Shown here piece after piece: positions 54,476 to 63,818 of a stretch of 64,000 nt of DNA. Positions within the stretch are counted from its first letter, which is position 1. Every line of letters begins with the position of its first letter. This DNA is from Escherichia coli. Lineage in GTDB: Bacteria; Pseudomonadota; Gammaproteobacteria; Enterobacterales; Enterobacteriaceae. A program made the position numbers and the translations under genes. The stretch lies in NCBI RefSeq assembly GCF_001677475.2, contig NZ_CP015229.1; one strand, given 5' to 3'. The notes below the pieces were generated by a model. That model ran no database searches, had not been told where the DNA came from, and saw only the letters and a list, made by a program, of their open reading frames with translations.

Positions 54476-54551
54476 GGCCCCTTAGCTCAGTGGTTAGAGC
54501 AGGCGACTCATAATCGCTTGGTCGCTGGTTCAAGTCCAGCAGGGGCCACCA
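54476..54551 (+). tRNA. ileX: tRNA-Ile2 (anticodon CAU, lysidine-modified), ileX-type
   Basis: 76-nt cloverleaf GGCCCCTTAGCTCAGTGGTTAGAGCAGGCGACTCATAATCGC...GGGGCCACCA with CAT anticodon and encoded CCA; differs from both Met tRNAs. Confidence 0.85.
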
Positions 54552-54909: not shown

Positions 54910-55652
54910 TGACAGCGTAACAAGCTCGGCCCAGCTTTCGCTGGGCCTCCCATTTCTACCTCCCAAAATCTATTAGAAACAATAAGCCACTAAAGAAAGA
55001 GCTTTTGCTGGCTACAATACTCACATACAAACAATTTTTATTTTTCGCGGGCGTAAAAAAACGATGGGGCTGGCAGTCCGGAAGACGTCAGGGTACAGAG
55101 ATTTGTACCCGCCTCTCCCTGTGCATGAGCACAATAAGTAACCGAAGGCGGAATTCCGCCCTCGGTACTCACATATGAGAAACGATATTTCTTCCACCGA
55201 TACCCTTTATTTGGGTATCGCGAGTAAGCCCCAAAATCTGGGTGTTACTCTTACTACCCAAACTACGGGTAGTTTCCGTAGTTTCATGGTCGAGTTGCAG
55301 ATCTGCAACTCACCCACCAGCCAACGCAATTTTGCGTTATCGGGAATATCAGCAAGTTACCGCCGCAGTCGTTCCGGCTTCTTCCACTGGTAAGTATTTT
55401 TCGCGCTCTCCCTCCGTTGTTGAGAACGGCGACGGTATGCCAGCAACTCAAGGACTCTGATCCGTATGTCGCGCATATCCACGCCGTTAAGCTCGATACC
55501 GTCACGGCGCATCATCTCTGCCACCACACGCGCGTAATTTTCGGCTATCACGCTGTCCGGCTGCGTGGCCTCCTATTTGCTTGATGGTTGTTTGATTCCG
55601 GTAACGCGGCGGATTAATCCCAGCAATTCAGATTCTGTCATAGTGCGCTACG

Positions 55653-55992
55653 TTACTTGTCTTTATTCGGCTGCAACTTATCCGGCACATTTCCGGTAGT
55701 TTCCATCAGGTAATCAGCCAGTATCTGTGGGAGGTTGTCGGCAACTCTGGCACTGGCATTACAGGCTTTAACCACTTCCCTTTTAAGCCCATCCAGCATA
55801 GCGGGGGTAATGTGTGGGAAGCTCCTTTGCATAGTAAGCGGGAGGCTGTCCATGATTGATGAAATCTGACTCGCCAGTTTTGAAAGCGCGTACATGCAAA
55901 ACTCTGTATCAATCACGTCACCGCGATCGCGCTCGTTTTTAAGTTCCTGCGCCTCCGCCTGTGCTGTCAGTAATCTGATCCTGACTCGTAAG
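55653..55992 (-). pseudogene. Nu1-like small terminase subunit, C-terminal fragment (gene split by IS insertion)
   Basis: Translation ...LLTAQAEAQELKNERDRGDVIDTEFCMYALSKLASQISSIMDSLPLTMQRSF... resembles the lambda Nu1 C-terminal half; frame is open up to the IS boundary. Confidence 0.7.
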
Positions 55993-56085: not shown

Positions 56086-57465
56086 GTGACGCTCAATACT
56101 TCTCAGGTCAGTTACTATATGACTCAGCGTAAGAAAGGTATAACTCAGCATATCTCGGCCATGAAGGCTGGTATCTCAGTCCGTTCTGGTCGTCGGATCG
56201 AAAAAGGAGAGTGGGCAAAAAACAGTGTTCGGCACTGGCGCACACGCAAAGATCCTCTGGAAGCTGTGTGGGACAGCATGCTTGTTCCTCTGTTGAAAGA
56301 GAGGCCGGCTCTGACACCAACAACTCTACTGGAGATGCTACAGGATAAATATCCCGGCCAGTACCCCAACAGCCTTCGAAGAACAATGCAACGGCGGGTT
56401 CGCGAATGGAAACTACAGTATGGTACAGAGCAGGAGGTCATGTTCCGCCAGCAACATCAGCCCGGCCTGCGAGGCCTGTCGGACTTTACTGAACTGAAAG
56501 GTGTAGTTGTCACCATCGCCGGTAAGTTGTTGGCGCATAAGTTGTATCACTTCCGTCTGGAATGGAGCCACTGGAGCTGGATGCGGGTTGTTCTGGGTGG
56601 TGAGAGCTTCTCTGCTCTGGCTGAAGGCCTGCAGGAAGCCCTCGGACAACTGGGCGGAGTGCCGGTAGAACATAAAACGGACAGCCTGAGGGCAGCATGG
56701 AAACAACAGGGCGAAGATGGACGCCGCGAGCTGACTGAGCGTTATGCTACTCTCTGTCAGCACTACGGAATGCAGGGCGTACACAATAATGCCGGTCGGG
56801 GCCACGAAAATGGCTCGGTTGAAAGTGCCCACGGACATCTGAAAAGGCGTATCTGTCAGGCGCTGATACTGCGGGGCAGTAACGACTTCAGCACCATAGA
56901 AGAATATCAGGCCTTCATCACTCAGCAGGTTATGCGGCACAACCGTAACAATCAGGATCTGGTCAAGGAAGAACGTCTTCATCTGAAACCGCTGCCGCTT
57001 CGTCGCAGTGCTGACTATGATGAGCTGACTGTGAGGGTTAGTCGCAGCAGTACCATCAATGTGAAGCACGTCGTCTACAGCGTACCTTCCCGGCTTGTAG
57101 GTCAACTGTTACGGGTCAGGTTATGGGACGATCGTCTGAGCTGTTACGTTGGCAGCAGCGAGGTCATGAGCTGCCCTCGCGTCAGACCAGAAAAAGGGAA
57201 GACGCGGGCCCGTCGTATCGACTTCCGACATGTGATCGACAGTCTGGCAAAAAAGCCCGGTGCGTTCTGCCATGCAACGCTGAGAAATGACATCCTGCCG
57301 GACGATGAATGGCGGAGGCTGTGGCGTCGCTTATGTAATCATCTGGAGCCCGATATGGCAGGAAGGCTGATGGTACATGCCGGGAAACGTGGATCTGCAC
57401 CGGCTGATGCGCTTCCTGGGTATAAAAGAAAAGGCGTTGCCGGTAGTCAATGTGATACAGCATAA
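56086..57465 (+). CDS. istA: IS21-family transposase IstA
   Basis: 459-aa ORF (GTG 56086; ATG at 56119 also possible); N-terminal HTH-like region and DDE-type catalytic core typical of IstA. Confidence 0.8.
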   Translation: MTLNTSQVSYYMTQRKKGITQHISAMKAGISVRSGRRIEKGEWAKNSVRHWRTRKDPLEAVWDSMLVPLLKERPALTPTTLLEMLQDKYPGQYPNSLRRTMQRRVREWKLQYGTEQEVMFRQQHQPGLRGLSDFTELKGVVVTIAGKLLAHKLYHFRLEWSHWSWMRVVLGGESFSALAEGLQEALGQLGGVPVEHKTDSLRAAWKQQGEDGRRELTERYATLCQHYGMQGVHNNAGRGHENGSVESAHGHLKRRICQALILRGSNDFSTIEEYQAFITQQVMRHNRNNQDLVKEERLHLKPLPLRRSADYDELTVRVSRSSTINVKHVVYSVPSRLVGQLLRVRLWDDRLSCYVGSSEVMSCPRVRPEKGKTRARRIDFRHVIDSLAKKPGAFCHATLRNDILPDDEWRRLWRRLCNHLEPDMAGRLMVHAGKRGSAPADALPGYKRKGVAGSQCDTA

Positions 57466-57510
57466 CCTGAGCAGTTATGAGCAACTACTGCGTGGCAAGG
57501 GAGGTTCGCA

Positions 57511-58266
57511 GTGAGCAATATCCATCACCTTGAACATAGCCTGCGTAAACTACGCCTGACACGAGTTGGAGCTGAATGGCACGCTCTGGAAAAACGAGCG
57601 CTGGCAGAAGGCTGGACACCATCGCGCTATCTTCTGACGCTATGCAATGAAGAACTCCTGTGGCGCGAGAGTGAAAAACTGCGTCGTTATAAAAAGGAGG
57701 CCCGGTTGCCAGTTGCCAAAACGCTGAGCGAATACGACTTCAGTCAGGTGCCGGAACTGAATGGAGCTCAGTTCCGGCAACTCTGTGAAACGACAGACTG
57801 GGTTGATGCAGGAGAAAACGTTCTGCTGTTCGGAGCCAGCGGGTTGGGGAAAAGCCATCTGGCGGCAGCGATCGTGGATGGCGTAGTAGGTCAGGGCTAC
57901 CGGGCCCGGTTCTACAGCGCAGGAGAGCTGTTGCAGGAACTACGTAAAGCCAGAGCTCAGTTGAAACTGAATGAGCTGCTACTGAAACTGGATCGCTACC
58001 GGGTGATAGTGGTGGATGATCTTGGCTATGTCAAACGCGATAGTGCCGAAACGGGTGTGCTGTTCGAGTTAATAGCGCATCGCTATGAACGTGGGAGCCT
58101 GGTGATAACCAGTAACCATCCGTTCAGCATGTGGGGCAGCATCTTCGTGGATGAGACTATGGCGGTGGCTGCGGCAGACAGGCTGATCCATCACGGATAT
58201 ATGTTCGAACTGAAAGGGGAAAGCTACAGGAAAAAGACAGCGAAGGCAGTAACAAGCGCGACTTGA
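57511..58266 (+). CDS. istB: IS21-family helper ATPase IstB
   Basis: 251 aa; Walker A FGASGLGKSHLA and Walker B VIVVDDLGY; GTG start with GGAGG RBS. Confidence 0.85.
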   Translation: MSNIHHLEHSLRKLRLTRVGAEWHALEKRALAEGWTPSRYLLTLCNEELLWRESEKLRRYKKEARLPVAKTLSEYDFSQVPELNGAQFRQLCETTDWVDAGENVLLFGASGLGKSHLAAAIVDGVVGQGYRARFYSAGELLQELRKARAQLKLNELLLKLDRYRVIVVDDLGYVKRDSAETGVLFELIAHRYERGSLVITSNHPFSMWGSIFVDETMAVAAADRLIHHGYMFELKGESYRKKTAKAVTSAT

Positions 58267-58331
58267 TGTCGCCCTGAAGGGTGCGGCCAGTATAGTTGGC
58301 GCGAGTCGGCAAAACTAGTTGACGTCTAATA

Positions 58332-58544
58332 TCGTAAGAGTTCATCATCATCAATCTCGCCTTTGTCGTTTGTAAGCTGGCTAATTGCATTGTTAACCCT
58401 ATTGTCTATCACGCTGGCAACATCATAAAACGCCTCACGGCCTTTACGTTCAACGGGAGTCACTCCCCACTTGTCGAATGCTGTAGCACTTACCCGGCAG
58501 CTTTGCGCCATGGTTTTTTTGTTCATCAGGTGCGATTTCATCAA
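58332..58544 (-). pseudogene. Nu1-like small terminase subunit, N-terminal fragment (gene split by IS insertion)
   Basis: MNKKTMAQSCRVSATAFDKWGVTPVERKGREAFYDVASVI... resembles lambda Nu1 N-terminal winged-helix region; frame runs into the IS and stops two codons inside it. Confidence 0.7.
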
Positions 58545-58639: not shown

Positions 58640-58725
58640 CCCCTGAAAAAGCTCATAAATAGCGAAAAACCGCGAGGTCGCCGCCCCGTAACGGGTCCAT
58701 ATGCCGGAAAGGACCCGTAAAAAAA
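58640..58725 (-). other. Lambda-type cos site (cosQ-cosN-cosB); cosN 12-nt cohesive-end sequence at 58675-58686
   Basis: Reverse strand reads ACGGGTCCTTTCCGGCATATGGACCCGTTACG-GGGCGGCGACCT-CGCGGTTTTTCGCTATTTATGAGC, near-identical to the lambda cos region as recalled; lies immediately upstream of the Nu1-like gene as in lambda. Confidence 0.7.
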
Positions 58726-58741
58726 GCCGGATTTCTCCGGC
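58719..58741 (-). terminator. Rho-independent terminator after the capsid operon
   Basis: Reverse strand stem GGCCGGAGAAATCCGGC followed by TTTTTTT. Confidence 0.5.
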
Positions 58742-58747
58742 CTTGTC

Positions 58748-59161
58748 TCAGATGGTTTTCAGTATGCGATCGATGTCGCCATCATCGCCCGGGTTTCTGC
58801 CAGCGTATGCCATACCAGCTGATACGGCTTTCGGGCTGTGCATGTCCATAAAGTTTTCAAAGGCTGCGGTAAGCTCTGGTGCAACCTTCTGGCGTTCCTG
58901 CTCTATGGTCATGCTAAGGATGCTTTTAGCCGTACCAACATCGATACAAGGCACGTTTGCCATTGCACGTAACAGCGGCTGATAGTCGCCAGATTCATCA
59001 AGCGCCATAATCGCATCAGAGCGCGGCTTGTCCTTCTCTTCCAGGCTGTTAAGTTGATATACGGCCTCGTAGGTTGATAAACCTCTGTCAGCCATTGCCC
59101 GCGCTTCGGCCTTAAATTTACTCGCCAGCGGTAGCGTCATGATGCTTTCATTCGTTGCCAT
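58748..59161 (-). CDS. Hypothetical 137-aa protein, last gene of the capsid operon
   Basis: Tightly packed 12 nt downstream of the D-like gene; no family recognised. Confidence 0.5.
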   Translation of the reverse strand: MATNESIMTLPLASKFKAEARAMADRGLSTYEAVYQLNSLEEKDKPRSDAIMALDESGDYQPLLRAMANVPCIDVGTAKSILSMTIEQERQKVAPELTAAFENFMDMHSPKAVSAGMAYAGRNPGDDGDIDRILKTI

Positions 59162-59173
59162 CGTTCCCTCTGC

Positions 59174-59509
59174 TTATCGGGCCAGTGGCTGAACGGATAC
59201 GCCAGAACCCGCAAAGGCGGCGCATTTTTTCGCATCGGTGTCGACGCTCTCAGGCCAGTTAACGGCGGCGATATTAAATATCCCCGTCTTATAGCACTGT
59301 GCTGATTTCTGCGTCGACGTGTCAACGGGGTACGAGGTCAGATAAACAGCCTTGCCAGATTCCTGACCATCCCACGGCTTAAACTCGCCATTTTCCGCCA
59401 GCATCAGCGGGGTAAATTCCTGAATAACTCCAGCATCAGCGGCAAAATGTACCAGCGTCGTGGATACCTGCTGACTGCCTGCAAATAACTCAATGTATGG
59501 AGTGTTCAT
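59174..59509 (-). CDS. Head decoration protein, lambda gpD-like
   Basis: 111 aa; shared blocks with lambda D as recalled (TPLML, WDG, YKxGxF, WPE, KKxAAFAG); size matches (lambda D 110 aa). Confidence 0.7.
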   Translation of the reverse strand: MNTPYIELFAGSQQVSTTLVHFAADAGVIQEFTPLMLAENGEFKPWDGQESGKAVYLTSYPVDTSTQKSAQCYKTGIFNIAAVNWPESVDTDAKKCAAFAGSGVSVQPLAR

Positions 59510-59520
59510 AGAATCCCCCG

Positions 59521-60576
59521 TTAAGCAATTTTGACGGTAACAAATTTGCGAATATCTGCCGGTACCGGCTGCGGTGCGCTGTGCGTCTGCACGTACTCAA
59601 TCGCCGGATCGCCATCCTCAATCCAGTTTTTCGGGTAGTACATGTTTTGCGTTGCGCCAGTTCTTACCGCTTCCGGATCCATAATCGCACCATAGGCCAC
59701 CAGCCCTTTATTGTTAGTGTTGCCCAGGACAAGCAAATCAGGCTCAAGGAAATATTTTTCGGTGCCATCGCTGTCGGTGTATTTGCCGGAATAGACGATA
59801 AGGGCCAGATCACCCAGATAGCCTTTAAAGCTCACCACTTCGCCCAGGTTTTTACAGGCCAGCTCTGCGGCGGATTCTGAACCACGGGAAAGATCGTACA
59901 GTTCACGGAATTTTTTAAAGCTGCGTAACGTGCGCCATACCTCAGCGCCCATAATCATGACGTTGGCGGGGCAACCAGCCTGATCGGTGTATAGTTCGAT
60001 GTCATAGATTGGATCGTGTGTTTCCTTATCTGCCTCAGACCACTTTTTGCCCGATCCCTGCGTAATGATGTTTTTAGTCGGGATTTTCCAGTCGATTTCG
60101 TATCTATTTATTCCTTCGCCCTCAATGATGTTTTTTCCGGTCGTGACCGCATTCACCGCCAGCCATTCTATGCGAGCTTTAATAGCGTTTACCTGGCGGC
60201 GCATGTTGCCAGTAATCAGGCGCATACGGCGATAAGTTGGATCGTTAAGCTGTGCCGGATCTTCTCCAGCCATGCGCATGATGGTTTTTGATGGATCGAT
60301 TTCGTGTTTTGGTTTCATATAGCCAGGGCGGATAGTGCTTGTTTCGTACCCTTTATCGCGCTGAACCTGACTCCCCACCATAGGCGAACAAAAAGCCGAC
60401 ATGGTGACTTCTTCAATATCCAGGGTATCTAACATGATGTCCTGCGTGTTGAAGGTTGCCACGTTCGGGAAAAACAGCGACGTAAACAGCGGACTGAATT
60501 TAAATTCCGAAATATCCCCACGATTCAGGTACGCGAAAAGCTGGTTAGTGTTAAGTGCCGTTGCTTTGCCTGTCAT
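59521..60576 (-). CDS. Major capsid protein, lambda gpE-like
   Basis: 351 aa; blocks FKFSPLFTSLFF and PGYMKPKHEIDP, YPKNWIEDGDPA, SAPQP match lambda E motifs (FKFDPLFLRLFF, PGYVKPKHEVNP, YPKNWVTTGDPA, SAPLM) as recalled; similar length. Confidence 0.85.
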   Translation of the reverse strand: MTGKATALNTNQLFAYLNRGDISEFKFSPLFTSLFFPNVATFNTQDIMLDTLDIEEVTMSAFCSPMVGSQVQRDKGYETSTIRPGYMKPKHEIDPSKTIMRMAGEDPAQLNDPTYRRMRLITGNMRRQVNAIKARIEWLAVNAVTTGKNIIEGEGINRYEIDWKIPTKNIITQGSGKKWSEADKETHDPIYDIELYTDQAGCPANVMIMGAEVWRTLRSFKKFRELYDLSRGSESAAELACKNLGEVVSFKGYLGDLALIVYSGKYTDSDGTEKYFLEPDLLVLGNTNNKGLVAYGAIMDPEAVRTGATQNMYYPKNWIEDGDPAIEYVQTHSAPQPVPADIRKFVTVKIA

Positions 60577-60782
60577 TATTCACCCCCATGAGTCTGATTC
60601 ATGCCCAGCGCCGCGCGTAAATAGGCGCGTACCTGCCAGCCTGTTGACGGCTCAACCATCGCCAGCGGCTCAAGTCCTGCCGCAATGCCTGCTTTTACGT
60701 TCTGCTGGTGGCGTTCCTTGAGCGCCTCCACGATGTCTGGGCTTATGTAAACTGTCACCCCGCCTTTTTTCTCTTCTGCCAT
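60576..60782 (-). CDS. Hypothetical 68-aa protein, first gene of the capsid operon, translationally coupled to the capsid gene
   Basis: ORF 60576-60815 from GTG; better start at internal ATG (MAEEKKGG) with AGAGGA RBS; stop TAA overlaps capsid ATG by 1 nt. Confidence 0.45.
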   Translation of the reverse strand: MAEEKKGGVTVYISPDIVEALKERHQQNVKAGIAAGLEPLAMVEPSTGWQVRAYLRAALGMNQTHGGE

Positions 60783-60820
60783 AGTCGGAAATTCCTCTTT
60801 GACGTTAAAAATCACAACTG

Positions 60821-60852
60821 GATGTTCATCCAGTTGTGATTATAATCATGAT
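60821..60852. promoter_or_regulatory. Perfect 14-bp-arm palindrome upstream of the capsid operon (candidate operator; contains CTG-N10-CAG)
   Basis: AATCACAACTGGATG-TTCA-TCCAGTTGTGATT about 40-70 bp upstream of the operon start. Confidence 0.4.
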
Positions 60853-60993
60853 TTCATTTTACGCAATAATGTTGAGTTGTGTTGCAAATTGTGAAATGAT
60901 TTCCGGCAACAGTAGTCACCATACTGTTAGATAAAAGCCTCATATGCAAAAGCCCGATAAGACCCTCTGACCTTATCGGGCTTTTTTTGGGGC

Positions 60994-61018
60994 ATAAAAA
61001 AGCCGGACTTCTCCGGCT
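60994..61018 (-). terminator. Rho-independent terminator after the SSB-like gene
   Basis: Reverse strand AGCCGGAGAAGTCCGGCT followed by TTTTTT; adjacent second hairpin (60952-60988) with T-run on the + strand. Confidence 0.5.
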
Positions 61019-61033
61019 TCTGTTACTCGTTGC

Positions 61034-61456
61034 TTAAAACGGTATGTTATCCCCGTACGGATCATCGTTACCCGCCTGTTGTTTTGCCCTGTTCAGTGCG
61101 TCAGTAGCCTGCCCTTGCTGGCCTTTTTTGCCGCCCGGTCGCGCCGTTCTCGCACTGATTACGCTGTCTGCGATAACCTGCCAGCCCTGCCGCGTTTCGC
61201 CGTTCTGGCCTGTCCACTGGCTTACCTGCATGTTACCCGCCACGCTCACCAGTTCGCCTTTGTGGTGTTTTGCCAGTGCGTCGGCCTGTCTGCCAAACGC
61301 CAGGACGGATAACCACATCGTCGCCGTTCCGTCATCTGCCTGGCTGCACGGAAGGGGGACCGCCATACTAGCCATCGTCATTTGTGTACCCTTGCTGGTG
61401 GTCTTTAACTGCGGGTCAGCCACCAGCCGCCCGTAAGCCGCTATCTGTGCTGTCAT
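61034..61456 (-). CDS. SSB-like single-stranded-DNA-binding protein (divergent OB fold with conserved acidic C-terminal tail)
   Basis: 140 aa; Gly/Gln-rich linker and C-terminus DDPYGDNIPF resembling the SSB tail (DFDDDIPF). Confidence 0.55.
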   Translation of the reverse strand: MTAQIAAYGRLVADPQLKTTSKGTQMTMASMAVPLPCSQADDGTATMWLSVLAFGRQADALAKHHKGELVSVAGNMQVSQWTGQNGETRQGWQVIADSVISARTARPGGKKGQQGQATDALNRAKQQAGNDDPYGDNIPF

Positions 61457-61985: not shown

Positions 61986-63818
61986 TTAATTTTTGCTATC
62001 GTCATTAGTGACTGATACACATGATGGCATCCAGTCTTCTGATTCCTCCGTCAGTGTCACGTTTGAACGTAAACCGTGCTTCGTTTTCCGTTTTATATAC
62101 TCCCTGCCATATTCCGCCATTGCCCCAGGCATATCTTTACCGAAGCGCGTCAGTGTTACAGGTTTACCAAACCCATGAGCCCTCATATAAGCCAGATAGG
62201 CATGATAGAGATACCTGCGCGGGCTGAATGGCACAATTTCAGCATTACCCACTAACAGGCCATCACACATTACCGACGCCATGAGATAGCCGCAGAAGTC
62301 CACCAGCGAATCCCCCTCTCGCTTTATCGCCAGTGCTTCTTCAGATTTCTGCTGCTCATATAACAGGCGTCTGGCTTCGTCCTGGTCAGCAAACCTTGTA
62401 AGCAGATGGCGAATCACTACCGCCAGCTCACCTTCTATTTTTTCCGCCAGCATCGGATCGCGTTCGTTCTCCGGTACAACTTCCGAAAAATTGAATATCA
62501 CCCGACGACGTGAGATCCCCCCGCTGCGGTCACTGAATGACATGGCGTTATTGTTAACCGCCAGCACTACTGCCGGAATACGCGTTGAGTAGGGGGCTTT
62601 GTGTTTCGGGTCAATTGCCACCTTGTCACCGCCTGTAATGGCCTTAATTCCTGCCCCATCACCAGCGTAGCGGGTCATATCCGGCATGATAATCAGCGAA
62701 AAGCCAACCACTAACGCGCGTTCCCTTGCATCTTCCAGCGCCTTCATGCTTGCCGATACTGTGTTGGCCTTACCCGCCAGCATGGTGCAAATCTCCGCCA
62801 TCACGCTTTTACCACTTCCCCCTGGACCTGTTACCTCAATGAATAACTGCCAGTCGTACCGGTTCGCCAGCACCATGAATAATGCAGCCAGTACGCGATC
62901 CGCCTTGCGGTCATTCTCAGCCACCGAACGGCGTAACCACTTCCAGAAATTCGGCGCATGTGTTGCCAGCGTTTCCCCCTCTGCTGGTGGGCTGAAAGGT
63001 AATTCACTGGCAATTAACAACCAGTCGTTTTTGTTATGCTCCCGAAAATTACCTGTTCTGGTATCAAATACCCCGTTACTGAATCCAATCAGGTTACGGG
63101 CTGTATTCCCCATTACAGGCAAACTTAACTTCATGGTATCGACCGCCGATTTAATGGCGTTCTGCGAATAGCTGATCTCCGCATCAATGAAAATCTGCGC
63201 CATAGCACGCTGTAACTCTTTATCCTGAACCGGCTCCCATACAACGCCGTTGTAATGGTGAACAGTGTCAGAGTCAGCATGAATCGCCAGTTCACCGCCA
63301 TAATGTGCCAGGAGAACTTCGCCGCGTTGACTTGCTCCCATCTGGTTAAGCGCCAGTGATGAAGCGTTATCGTCTTTTACCCGCTCTTTTTTCTTTACAG
63401 GCAGTTCAACTACCTTTTTCTTTTCCGCCAGCTCTGCCCGTTCACGTTCCAGATATTCGCGCCAGTTCTCCCGTTTCTGGCTGTGCATTCCTTCAGGATA
63501 ATAATCAGCATCCCTGACACCTGCCGCTGCCAGTTTCTGCCCGATGGTATTAACAAGCCCCGGACGCAATAACCCCGCCTGGTAGAGACGCACACGATAG
63601 CGTCCGTCCGGTACGATTTGCAGGTTGTCCAGTTCGGCAAGTTGTTGCTCTCCAAGCCAGACAGGAGGCACGTTATCGCCAGCCAGTCGCCCGTCCTGTT
63701 CCTGCCACTGCTTCGCATGTGCCCACGCATCACTACCCGCAAAAATGATGACTTCCGTCATTTTGTCACGTGGCTGGTGTTTTAAATTTGGCGCTTTTTT
63801 CATTTCTGCTCTCTCCAC
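61986..63818 (-). CDS. Replication initiator/helicase, SF3 (D5-like) family, P4 alpha-type
   Basis: 610 aa; Walker A GPGGSGKS in a D5/SF3-helicase-like core; sits next to the iteron array; start may be at a downstream Met. Confidence 0.75.
   Translation of the reverse strand: MERAEMKKAPNLKHQPRDKMTEVIIFAGSDAWAHAKQWQEQDGRLAGDNVPPVWLGEQQLAELDNLQIVPDGRYRVRLYQAGLLRPGLVNTIGQKLAAAGVRDADYYPEGMHSQKRENWREYLERERAELAEKKKVVELPVKKKERVKDDNASSLALNQMGASQRGEVLLAHYGGELAIHADSDTVHHYNGVVWEPVQDKELQRAMAQIFIDAEISYSQNAIKSAVDTMKLSLPVMGNTARNLIGFSNGVFDTRTGNFREHNKNDWLLIASELPFSPPAEGETLATHAPNFWKWLRRSVAENDRKADRVLAALFMVLANRYDWQLFIEVTGPGGSGKSVMAEICTMLAGKANTVSASMKALEDARERALVVGFSLIIMPDMTRYAGDGAGIKAITGGDKVAIDPKHKAPYSTRIPAVVLAVNNNAMSFSDRSGGISRRRVIFNFSEVVPENERDPMLAEKIEGELAVVIRHLLTRFADQDEARRLLYEQQKSEEALAIKREGDSLVDFCGYLMASVMCDGLLVGNAEIVPFSPRRYLYHAYLAYMRAHGFGKPVTLTRFGKDMPGAMAEYGREYIKRKTKHGLRSNVTLTEESEDWMPSCVSVTNDDSKN

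Follow-up and report, generated by a model that had tools for sequence, protein, structure and literature searches.

A Small ORF Heads the Capsid Operon of a Phage-Inducible Chromosomal Island

What does a 68-residue protein do when its gene directly precedes, and overlaps, the capsid gene of a phage satellite? The question arises at one end of the 64,000-nucleotide stretch of Escherichia coli DNA analyzed here (the window), where a first-pass annotation had pointed to a small protein in a helper-dependent island. The setting is borne out: the small ORF sits in a Gram-negative phage-inducible chromosomal island (PICI) of the EcCICFT073 type. Islands of this class are recognized by the order int-alpA-primase-(SSB)-late zone, a size of about 10 kb, a specific integration site, and no tail or lysis genes. 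The primase and SSB genes lie inside the window, which ends short of alpA and int. A near-identical intact copy of the island is present in strain TUM1886, relatives are found in O157:H7, a Nissle derivative, and CFT073, and at least 80% of a 2.7-kb stretch covering the operon, cos, and the first part of the small-terminase gene occurs in 590 of 5,426 complete E. coli genomes.

The operon comprises the small ORF, an E-like capsid gene, a D-like decoration gene, and a Nu3-like gene, and has terminators at both ends. Its genes and the elements that follow it are:

60576..60782, minus strand: 68-aa ORF, first cistron, predicted to encode a ribbon-helix-helix protein with one strand (residues 9-13) and two helices (15-34, 47-58)
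59521..60576, minus strand: lambda-E-like major capsid protein, 351 aa (phrog_29, E = 5e-110; Pfam Phage_cap_E in relatives)
59174..59509, minus strand: lambda-D-like head decoration protein, 111 aa (phrog_49, E = 2e-27; Pfam HDPD in relatives)
58748..59161, minus strand: Nu3-like protein, 137 aa, last gene of the operon (phrog_1999; phrog_53, head-protease C terminus, E = 1.3e-8)
58719..58741, minus strand: intrinsic-terminator-like hairpin GCCGGAgaaaTCCGGC plus T7 at the operon end, read from the sequence
58675..58686, minus strand: cosN GGGCGGCGACCT, read from the sequence, followed by the Nu1-like small-terminase gene
58326..58544, minus strand: Nu1-like small terminase, N-terminal 72 codons (phrog_57), cut by an IS21-family insertion

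The phrog_29 match agrees with the earlier description of an E-like capsid gene directly downstream of the small ORF. The identity of the island capsid to phage E proteins does not exceed 47%, the best match being that of Gifsy-1 (46.5%), and the capsid therefore represents a PICI-specific lineage. The 137-aa protein has no Pfam match, and in tblastn it is 37% identical to an annotated Nu3 of a lambda-like phage (E = 2e-4); judged by these matches, the scaffold candidate of the operon is this protein rather than the product of the small ORF. The gene order differs from the C/Nu3-D-E order of the lambda head genes, and small ORF-E-D is the minimal conserved trio, found also in islands without the Nu3-like gene. 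The cosN sequence is one that we take to be identical to the lambda cohesive end. The insertion in the terminase gene carries IstA/IstB (56086-58266), and in strain TUM1886 this gene is intact (180 aa, 99.8% identity).

EcCICFT073 has the same operon, with a 68-aa homologue (positions 463-669 of locus L011) that is 93% identical and lies directly before c1499 (capsid) and c1500 (decoration). The two islands differ in that the window island has a full Nu1-like TerS, here disrupted by IS21, whereas EcCICFT073 has RppA instead. The published work on EcCICFT073 that we consulted does not mention the small ORF.

The Small ORF Encodes a Conserved Protein

The small ORF runs on the minus strand from an ATG at 60782-60780 to a TAA stop at 60578-60576 (68 codons). 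In a program-made ORF list the frame begins at a GTG (60815) and encodes 79 aa, with this ATG internal to it, but since an in-frame TAA shuts the upstream GTG/ATG extension in most relatives, we place the start at 60782. In other strains RefSeq annotates the identical 207-nt CDS, as hypothetical only. Base 60576 is common to the stop codon and the capsid ATG, the junction reading GGGGGTGAATAATGACA. This stop/start overlap, recorded in the first-pass annotation, recurs in 88 of the 89 readable loci (85 TAATG and 3 ATGA; the remaining locus has a 5-nt gap). All 92 related loci examined carry the ORF intact, and its dN/dS is 0.11-0.44 (about 0.2), compared with 0.06-0.21 for the capsid gene. On these three grounds the small ORF is a real gene encoding a 68-residue protein. 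Furthermore, no other frame of the region, on either strand, stays open throughout.

The ORF had also been credited with a good ribosome-binding site at its internal ATG. The Shine-Dalgarno sequence AAGAGGAA and its spacing are indeed kept in essentially all relatives, but the GAGG core ends 11 nt 5′ of the ATG, longer than optimal. Similarly, the overlap makes the proposed translational coupling to the capsid gene plausible, but coupling is not required, because the capsid gene has its own strong and well-spaced Shine-Dalgarno sequence (GGGGGTGA, 3 nt 5′ of its ATG) within the final codons of the small ORF. The conserved G-x-E C terminus of the 68-aa protein is partly explained by this dual use of its codons.

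As the first-pass annotation had it, the protein is uncharacterized: it belongs to PHROG 3255 (E = 1.5e-36; residues 1-68 on profile positions 12-79 of 79), labeled "unknown function," and has no significant NCBIfam, PADLOC, or Pfam family. tblastn against 50,697 phage records gave no match, and its profile gave chance-level matches only among PDB sequences. Searches with phmmer (1.84 billion representatives) and two word-indexed searches found relatives only in Enterobacterales islands, the few further hits being repetitive and of low complexity, so that no annotated distant relative was reached. In islands of E. coli, Salmonella, Pluralibacter, and Edwardsiella, the gene is always directly 5′ of the Phage_cap_E and HDPD genes.

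Conservation along the protein is uneven. Among homologues from four genera, whose overall identity is 49-66%, the N-terminal strand and the beginning of helix A vary little or not at all, and the remainder diverges independently of the capsid, with identities for the small protein and the capsid of 66% versus 93% and 58% versus 86%. Two sharply different alleles, 66% identical to each other, lie beside near-identical capsids (93-97%) and promoters; between CFT073 and O157, dN of the small gene is about ten times that of the capsid gene (0.208 versus 0.019). The alleles show no linkage to the full-TerS or Rpp type of island.

Structure Prediction Suggests a Ribbon-Helix-Helix Dimer

Structure prediction, proposed in the first-pass annotation as a check, gave a strand-helix-helix arrangement resembling the ribbon-helix-helix (RHH) fold. 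The AlphaFold2 monomer (pLDDT 75.5) has the two helices, at 15-34 and 47-58. In a tandem-fusion dimer (pTM 0.63; pLDDT 79-88 in the folded parts), the only strands are at 9-13 and 102-106, which are residues 9-13 of each copy and carry the pattern V-T/S-V-Y-I-S. With no other strands in the model, these two would pair with each other. The alignment behind the models comprised only 15 fairly similar sequences. CopG-family proteins recur among the AFDB matches, and the nearest solved structure, on a tentative match, is the N-terminal, DNA-binding domain of TraM (PDB 3omy, 3on0, and 4qpo); a Foldseek search of the PDB with the fused-dimer model returned nothing useful. Together, the models predict that the 68-aa protein is an RHH dimer.

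The sequence offers hints in the same direction. The only two Pfam hints, RHH_1 (E = 5.9) and BrnA_antitoxin (E = 0.36), both fall on the strand, and the best family member reaches E = 0.05 against RHH profiles; no RHH family gives a match in sequence that is statistically significant. Against an alignment of TraM N-terminal domains, hhalign paired VTVYISPDIVEALKE with VNLYISNDAYEKINA over 15 columns (P = 5e-4, probability 31%), which falls short of establishing homology, and Tra_M (PF05261) is not among the Pfam matches that were listed with E values of up to 10. Homology to an unrelated known protein, which the first-pass annotation had named as an outcome that would count against its reading, is approached only weakly, the TraM/RHH likeness being structural, local, and statistically insecure.

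The 68-aa protein and TraM of F-like plasmids share the strand-helix-helix order, predicted in the case of the former, and, in the strand that reads DNA, the local echo V-x-[LV]-Y-I-S-x-D. They differ in that TraM has 127 residues with a C-terminal tetramerization domain, whereas the 68-aa protein ends after its RHH-like part, and in the loop between the helices, which is longer in the 68-aa protein. Their contexts also differ, the oriT region in one case and a phage-satellite capsid operon in the other. The 68-aa protein is slightly acidic (net charge about −1), with no Arg or Lys in the ribbon. TraM is likewise small and roughly neutral and autoregulates its own promoter, and the RHH domain of F TraM is also about neutral.

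A Conserved Promoter-like Site with a Candidate Operator

Upstream of the small ORF, the following elements were identified:

60948..61019, minus strand: two successive terminator-like hairpins, GAAGCCGGAGAAGTCCGGCTTTTTT and AAAGCCCGATAAGG...CTTATCGGGCTTTT, read from the sequence and conserved in the upstream alignment
60851..60867, minus strand: dyad ATTGCGTAAAATGAAAT over the −35 element, candidate operator, from the upstream alignment
60839..60866, minus strand: promoter-like TTGCGT-16 nt-TATAAT (−10 perfect, −35 matching 3 of 6)
60810..60841, minus strand: perfect 32-bp palindrome AATCACAACTGGATG/CATCCAGTTGTGATT (15-nt arms, 100% complementary)
60792..60799, minus strand: Shine-Dalgarno sequence AAGAGGAA of the small ORF, read from the sequence and conserved in all aligned upstream regions

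The two hairpins follow the SSB gene and close the upstream replication operon. A consensus promoter scan missed the promoter-like site because of its weak −35, but 59 distinct upstream regions show little or no variation in its −10 or in the TTGC of the −35. The dyad over the −35 has the family consensus ATTGCA-N5-TGCAAT, the right half being degenerate in the window's copy. The pattern TTGC-N7-GCAA is located 81-90 nt 5′ of the small-ORF ATG in 81 of the 92 loci, and elsewhere has only 21 matches in 793 kb, compared with 11 in shuffles. The rest of the 64-kb window shows no enrichment of the dyad pattern, and the window as a whole has no match to it at one mismatch or fewer, its own copy being degenerate. 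The promoter region is 75-91% identical among E. coli and Salmonella islands, in which the protein is just 53-66% identical. In Edwardsiella the promoter region falls to 46-65% identity and the dyad is retained; one Edwardsiella locus (L007) has two 24-nt direct repeats of the dyad element and lacks the large palindrome.

A T-run follows the palindrome, which begins within the final bases of the −10. The predicted RNA fold of the palindrome has −26 kcal/mol (z = −5.8), and 14 pairs are kept over 27 distinct sequences, in which G:T wobbles occur on the sense strand. The palindrome may be either a transcribed hairpin or terminator insulating the operon or, alternatively, an operator. Rfam gave nothing credible in the leader, and a BLAST search of phages with the 153-nt promoter/leader yielded short chance matches only. 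The succession of a weak upstream promoter-like site, a TATAAT resembling a −10, and a hairpin followed by a T-run had suggested a copy of the lambdoid PR′-qut-tR′ unit read by helper Q, an idea for which the phage BLAST gave no sequence support.

A Possible Autoregulator of the Capsid Operon

Our preferred reading, a tentative one put a little short of evenly balanced, is that the 68-aa protein is of the RHH type and autoregulates the capsid operon of the PICI. The N-terminal strands of two subunits would pair, followed in each by the two helices, and the dimer, or a pair of dimers, would bind the conserved TTGCA-N5-TGCAA dyad over the −35 of its own promoter. Binding would repress, or set the level of, transcription of the island capsid genes; the stop/start overlap would link regulator output to capsid output, and the variable helical surface would remain available for contact with a further partner. 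The gene itself, the operon layout, its synteny, the conservation pattern, and the cis elements are observed, and the fold is predicted; the operator and the sign of regulation are inferred, as is DNA binding, for which the invariant strand and a conserved dyad nearly unique to this promoter are circumstantial evidence.

The arrangement is a familiar one. RHH autoregulators such as CopG, Arc, omega, and those of ParD-type antitoxin operons usually come first after the promoter and overlap the next gene. The 68-aa protein resembles CopG, Arc/Mnt of P22, omega, and the ParD/BrnA-type antitoxins in its (predicted) fold, size, first position, overlap, and promoter dyad or repeat. It differs from them in that it has no significant sequence match to them, its ribbon lacks basic residues, its DNA binding is putative, and the next gene encodes a virion structural protein, whereas CopG/ParD-type regulators are followed by a toxin or replication protein. 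Counting against autoregulation are the nonsignificant RHH matches, the 15-sequence alignment, the acidic character of the protein, the degenerate dyad in the window, and the lack of co-variation between strand residue 10 (T or S) and the palindrome arms. Furthermore, simple negative autoregulation alone leaves a rise of capsid-gene expression after helper induction unexplained, and AlpA, a host factor, or a helper protein could equally well recognize the palindrome or dyad.

In an elaboration that we regard as improbable, the RHH protein would keep the E, D, and Nu3-like genes off until a helper late protein bound its fast-evolving, recombining helices and lifted repression, the alleles corresponding to helper groups.

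Alternative Roles

A capsid-assembly factor, which would bind island or helper E as a small internal scaffold, as a chaperone, or as a determinant of size, was what the first-pass annotation expected in this position, and we now consider it unlikely. The invariable synteny and stop/start overlap with the capsid gene, and the persistence of the small-E-D trio in islands without the Nu3-like gene, would fit such a role, and deletion of E and D in EcCICFT073, which changed neither interference nor transfer, is compatible with it (PMC6092414). However, the operon already has a scaffold candidate in the Nu3-like gene two genes downstream, divergence of the small protein is independent of that of the capsid, and its predicted RHH fold, of a DNA-binding type, makes a regulator of the capsid genes likelier than a scaffold. 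Like lambda Nu3/gpC, the small ORF is encoded beside E and D homologues in a head-gene cluster; the earlier view that the protein is unlike Nu3/C stands, as PHROG, Pfam, and phage tblastn gave no similarity of that kind and the island Nu3-like protein is encoded by a separate gene. SaPI1 CpmB (72 residues) and P4 Sid are likewise small satellite proteins from the morphogenesis region of a helper-dependent island, but no sequence or fold match between either of them and the 68-aa protein was obtained. That EcCICFT073 DNA is packaged in phage-sized, full-size heads (PMC6092414) and that the 68-aa protein evolves independently of the capsid both speak indirectly against a size determinant like CpmB, Sid, or TcaP.

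It is fairly improbable that the protein binds a helper protein or helper DNA in order to sense or interfere with the phage, its variable helices tracking helper diversity. Satellites commonly evolve such sensor or interference proteins (SaPI Stl, PLE CapR), and the divergent alleles beside near-identical capsids and promoters, together with the excess of dN between CFT073 and O157, would suit one. However, neither tblastn with the small protein nor BLAST with the leader found a homologue or target in phage genomes, and deletion of rppA (c1503) alone brings lambda plaque formation back nearly to island-free levels (PMC6739421), so that any interference of the small ORF with lambda must be minor in EcCICFT073.

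An RHH protein with a DNA role beyond its own promoter, either as a cos accessory factor (cos lies 2 kb downstream; TraM and TraY play such a part for relaxases at oriT) or as a regulator of other island genes, we rate as improbable. A relaxosome accessory protein gives the best structural match, and the operon ends immediately 5′ of cosN and the small-terminase or Rpp gene, but the candidate binding motif is essentially restricted to the gene's own promoter, the two alleles are unlinked to full TerS versus Rpp, and RppA accounts for the packaging specificity of EcCICFT073 (PMC6739421).

Finally, that the peptide is unimportant and the ORF merely delivers ribosomes to the capsid start is very improbable: the conserved TAATG overlap and the G-x-E codons doubling as the capsid Shine-Dalgarno sequence agree with it, but purifying selection on the amino acids, motifs invariant across 50%-identical homologues in four genera, a confident and repeatable fold prediction, and the capsid gene's own strong, well-spaced Shine-Dalgarno sequence all argue against it.

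Implications for Satellite Capsid Genes

Classical Gram-negative PICIs are widespread and most carry an E-like capsid gene, the purpose of which is puzzling because its deletion in the model island had no measured effect (PMC6092414). The gene heading the capsid operon has been overlooked until now. If the 68-aa protein regulates the operon, it would offer a direct handle on when and why satellites express capsid, decoration, and scaffold proteins; if it senses helpers as a switch, the capsid genes of "classical" Gram-negative PICIs would gain a regulated, helper-specific role; and if it is just another small RHH autoregulator, the result is a useful annotation and no surprise. An operon regulator would also have to be reckoned with in experiments on the capsid genes. 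In the published c1499 expression clone, the forward primer anneals within the small ORF, so that the clone starts inside this gene.

The small ORF at the head of the capsid operon

On its predicted fold, the 68-codon small ORF is best described as a narrowly distributed gene of the ribbon-helix-helix (RHH) kind, standing first in the capsid operon of the classical phage-inducible chromosomal islands (PICIs) of Gram-negative bacteria.

Features of the island around the small ORF
61986-63818, minus: P4-type primase, upstream, in the replication operon
between primase and SSB, minus: 81-aa ORF
61034-61456, minus: SSB
about 61019-60948, minus: two terminator-like hairpins, after SSB
between these hairpins and the small ORF, minus: conserved promoter-like region
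60844-60839, minus: perfect -10 TATAAT, 16 nt after TTGCGT (-35)
60810-60841, minus: perfect 32-bp palindrome, beginning in the last -10 bases, with a T-run after it
60782-60576, minus: small ORF (ATG 60782-60780, TAA 60578-60576), 68 aa
59521-60576, minus: E-like capsid protein, 351 aa (phrog_29, E = 5e-110)
after the capsid gene, minus: D-like decoration protein (phrog_49)
58748-59161, minus: 137-aa protein, annotated 'hypothetical' (phrog_1999; no Pfam family)
58741-58719, minus: terminator-like hairpin, after the 137-aa gene
58675-58686, minus: cosN, GGGCGGCGACCT, between the capsid-operon terminator and the terminase small subunit gene
58326-58544, minus: first 72 codons of the Nu1-like small terminase, interrupted by an IS21-family element

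The ORF list enters the gene as 79 aa from a GTG at 60815, with the ATG of the 68-aa form inside. Since the reading frame is closed by a TAA 5' of this ATG in most relatives, the genuine product is the 68-aa form, MAEEKKGGVTVYISPDIVEALKERHQQNVKAGIAAGLEPLAMVEPSTGWQVRAYLRAALGMNQTHGGE; the RefSeq annotation of other strains has the identical 207-nt CDS. None of the 92 copies (that of the window and those of 91 related loci, taken from four E. coli genomes, contigs encoding distant homologues and IMG/VR) has a disrupted small ORF, and on neither strand is an alternative frame open across the whole gene. Pairwise dN/dS is 0.11-0.44 for the small gene versus 0.06-0.21 for the capsid gene. The first-pass annotation had the stop codon overlapping the capsid ATG (TAATG); this is indeed what the sequence reads at the 351-aa capsid ORF (59521-60576), and the overlap is kept in 88 of 89 readable junctions, the exception being a 5-nt gap in one Salmonella-type locus. 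Of the good ribosome-binding site proposed for the internal ATG, a conserved Shine-Dalgarno sequence (AAGAGGAA) is present, but its GAGG core lies rather far off, at a longish though conserved spacing of 11 nt. Translational coupling to the capsid gene, also proposed, accords with the stop/start overlap; however, the small ORF's final three codons (G-x-E) double as a strong Shine-Dalgarno for the capsid gene itself (GGGGGTGA), so coupling is not required for capsid translation, and this double use accounts for part of the small protein's C-terminal conservation. The 23-24 nt at the small-ORF Shine-Dalgarno (60789-60812) have exact matches among unannotated 'Campylobacter phage' records and in Shigella phage pSf-1, which may reflect chance, a shared ribosome-binding cassette or record contamination.

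Divergence from the capsid gene and the scaffold question

The sequence G-V-[ST]-V-Y-I-S-P-D-I-V, which covers the strand and the beginning of helix A, shows little or no variation among proteins 49-66% identical overall, and the remainder of the small protein diverges independently of the neighbouring genes. Between the window and the O157:H7 island, identity is 66% for the small protein, 93% for capsid, 97% for decoration protein and 84% for the 120 nt upstream; between two Salmonella-type islands the corresponding values are 58%, 86%, 85% and 91%. CFT073 and O157 alleles differ with a dN of 0.208 in the small gene versus 0.019 in the capsid gene. A capsid-fitting protein would be expected to track the capsid, and by these sequence comparisons the small protein does not.

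Two small-protein alleles, sharply distinct at 66% identity, occur in E. coli islands (type A, 56 loci; type B, 26; compared between related locus L001, 11245-11451, and both the CFT073 island L011, 463-669, and the window, 60576-60782), and type B alleles lack W49 and R56, which are near-invariant elsewhere. Since both alleles lie beside capsid genes 93-97% identical, the alignments indicate recombination or accelerated change confined to the small gene.

In lambda, the C-terminal part of the C reading frame constitutes Nu3. The head-protease PHROG is matched by the 137-aa protein at C-terminal positions 494-568 of 583 (E = 1.3e-8), and tblastn pairs this protein with an annotated Nu3 from a lambda-like phage (37% identity, E = 2e-4). 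As a Nu3-like candidate it probably provides the island with a scaffold of its own, which leaves no need for one at the 68-aa slot. The earlier expectation of a scaffold or capsid-size determinant at the small-ORF position is thus not supported, both because the Nu3-like gene lies elsewhere in the operon and because the small protein's divergence is decoupled from the capsid. The same two observations, together with the packaging of EcCICFT073, the model Gram-negative PICI, in phage-sized heads (PMC6092414), make it unlikely that the small protein is a capsid-assembly factor, for which its position and nothing else speaks.

Family and predicted fold

The small protein was rightly called unknown in the first-pass annotation: it belongs to PHROG 3255, a family of unknown function, and has no significant family in Pfam, NCBIfam or PADLOC, no match among phage genomes and no sequence relative in the PDB. 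Searches of 1.84 and 5.8 billion proteins returned homologues that are all island proteins of Escherichia, Salmonella, Pluralibacter and Edwardsiella. Structure prediction, which had been suggested, was run on the monomer and on a tandem dimer (two copies joined by a 25-residue Gly/Ser linker, with each homologue fused likewise) and yielded an RHH-like model of a strand pair and helices. In the AlphaFold2 monomer (15-sequence alignment; pLDDT 75.5) the N-terminus is extended and helices span 15-34 and 47-58. The tandem dimer (pTM 0.63; pLDDT 79-88 in folded parts) has strands at residues 9-13 of both copies and no others, so the two must pair mutually, and paired N-terminal strands are the hallmark of the RHH dimer. 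The only Pfam hints, RHH_1 and BrnA, both fall at the strand and are non-significant. The aligned stretches of the F TraM sequence agree with PDB entries 4qpo and 2g7o, and hhalign against 21 distinct TraM N-termini aligned VTVYISPDIVEALKE with VNLYISNDAYEKINA (P = 5e-4, probability 31%). Together, the structural and sequence comparisons weakly favour RHH in the same direction, and an RHH fold is probable on these models, while the evidence is short of establishing homology with any named family.

Promoter, dyad and palindrome

The 120 nt 5' of the small-ORF ATG are strikingly conserved and contain four features. The -35, TTGCGT in the window and TTGCAC in most islands, is weak, which is why a consensus promoter scan missed the site. 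Spanning it is a dyad, consensus ATTGCA-N5-TGCAAT. Its core, TTGC-N7-GCAA, is found 81-90 nt 5' of the small-ORF start codon in 81 of the 92 loci; 793 kb of islands and their flanks contain only 21 further matches, compared with 11 after shuffling. The right half of the dyad is degenerate in the window copy; in the Edwardsiella island (L007) the element is present as two 24-nt direct repeats, and a weaker second TTGCAA element lies two helical turns upstream.

The palindrome folds as RNA at -26 kcal/mol (z = -5.8) and reads as a hairpin or terminator stopping read-through from the replication operon; a transcript from the TATAAT promoter would miss most of its 5' arm. Among 27 distinct E. coli versions, 14 pairs are largely kept with a few compensated changes, although position 9 is mismatched in 11, and variants include G:T combinations that give G-U pairs on the sense strand only. 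Kept pairing and sense-strand-only G:T suggest a terminator built into the promoter; alternatively, the palindrome may be an operator. It is absent from the Edwardsiella island in the upstream-region alignment. The dyad is the better target candidate, since it is kept in every lineage, like the protein's strand.

Putative autoregulation of the capsid operon

The layout matches that of CopG, Arc, omega or ParD-type operons, and a small RHH autoregulator is the simplest interpretation. Its dimers would occupy the dyad that spans the -35 and hold down transcription of the small-E-D-Nu3-like operon, while the stop/start overlap would keep regulator and structural proteins in step. We infer each step, from fold to DNA binding, to the dyad as operator, to repression, and give the full statement tentative credence, a little under even. 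Against it stand the weak similarity scores, a net charge of about -1 with a ribbon lacking basic residues, the degenerate dyad of the window copy and the finding of no co-variation between strand residue 10 and the palindrome arms; furthermore, simple autoregulation leaves a post-induction capsid burst unexplained.

A helper-directed sensor or interference factor would account for the fast-evolving alleles, yet it is rather improbable, as in EcCICFT073 the loss of rppA alone was enough to restore the growth of lambda (PMC6739421). Slightly less probable still is a DNA-processing accessory at cos, which fits the TraM analogy, whereas the dyad motif is confined to the promoter and small-protein alleles are unlinked to TerS or Rpp type. 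That the small ORF is a mere coupling leader is very improbable, being contradicted by selection on the peptide.

Island copies and the published record

The cosN matches the lambda cohesive end exactly, with nearly identical flanks. The IS21-family element (56086-58266, plus; IstA 459 aa, IstB 251 aa) lies inside the island's Nu1-like terminase gene, flanked by 58326-58544 and about 55650-55920 (both minus), and because of this insertion the window's island copy is probably packaging-defective. Strain TUM1886 has an uninterrupted copy at 99.8% identity, about 10 kb long and adjoining a tRNA gene, with an intact terminase small subunit of 180 aa; its order (integrase, HTH regulator, Icd-like, DUF4222, primase, SSB, small ORF, capsid, decoration, 137-aa protein, terminase small subunit) is the organisation of Gram-negative PICIs (PMC6092414, PMC10111431). 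At the island end in the window, a tRNA gene (54476-54551, plus, anticodon CAT) is presumably the attachment site; ARAGORN calls it Met, and RefSeq labels its TUM1886 equivalent tRNA-Ile. At least 80% of a 2.7-kb query (operon, cos and start of the small-terminase gene) is present in 590 of 5,426 complete E. coli genomes. Some relatives (L004, L007-L009) are helper-embedded, with prophage head genes directly after the small-E-D trio: FI and tail genes in Salmonella; portal, protease and a second D and E pair in Edwardsiella. As the Nu3-like gene is missing from these relatives, the conserved unit comes down to small-E-D.

A literature search found no paper mentioning the small ORF, an overlooked, testable putative control point for satellite capsid genes. 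In EcCICFT073, a 93% identical copy (L011 463-669) lies immediately 5' of c1499 (capsid) and c1500 (decoration), whose deletion left interference and transfer unaffected (PMC6092414). Work on this island cloned the genes past the origin singly, c1499 first. The pBAD18-c1499 forward primer (PMC6739421, Table S5) anneals at small-ORF codons 32-38 (L011 557-577), and the c1499 capsid clone therefore began with a truncated copy of the small ORF.
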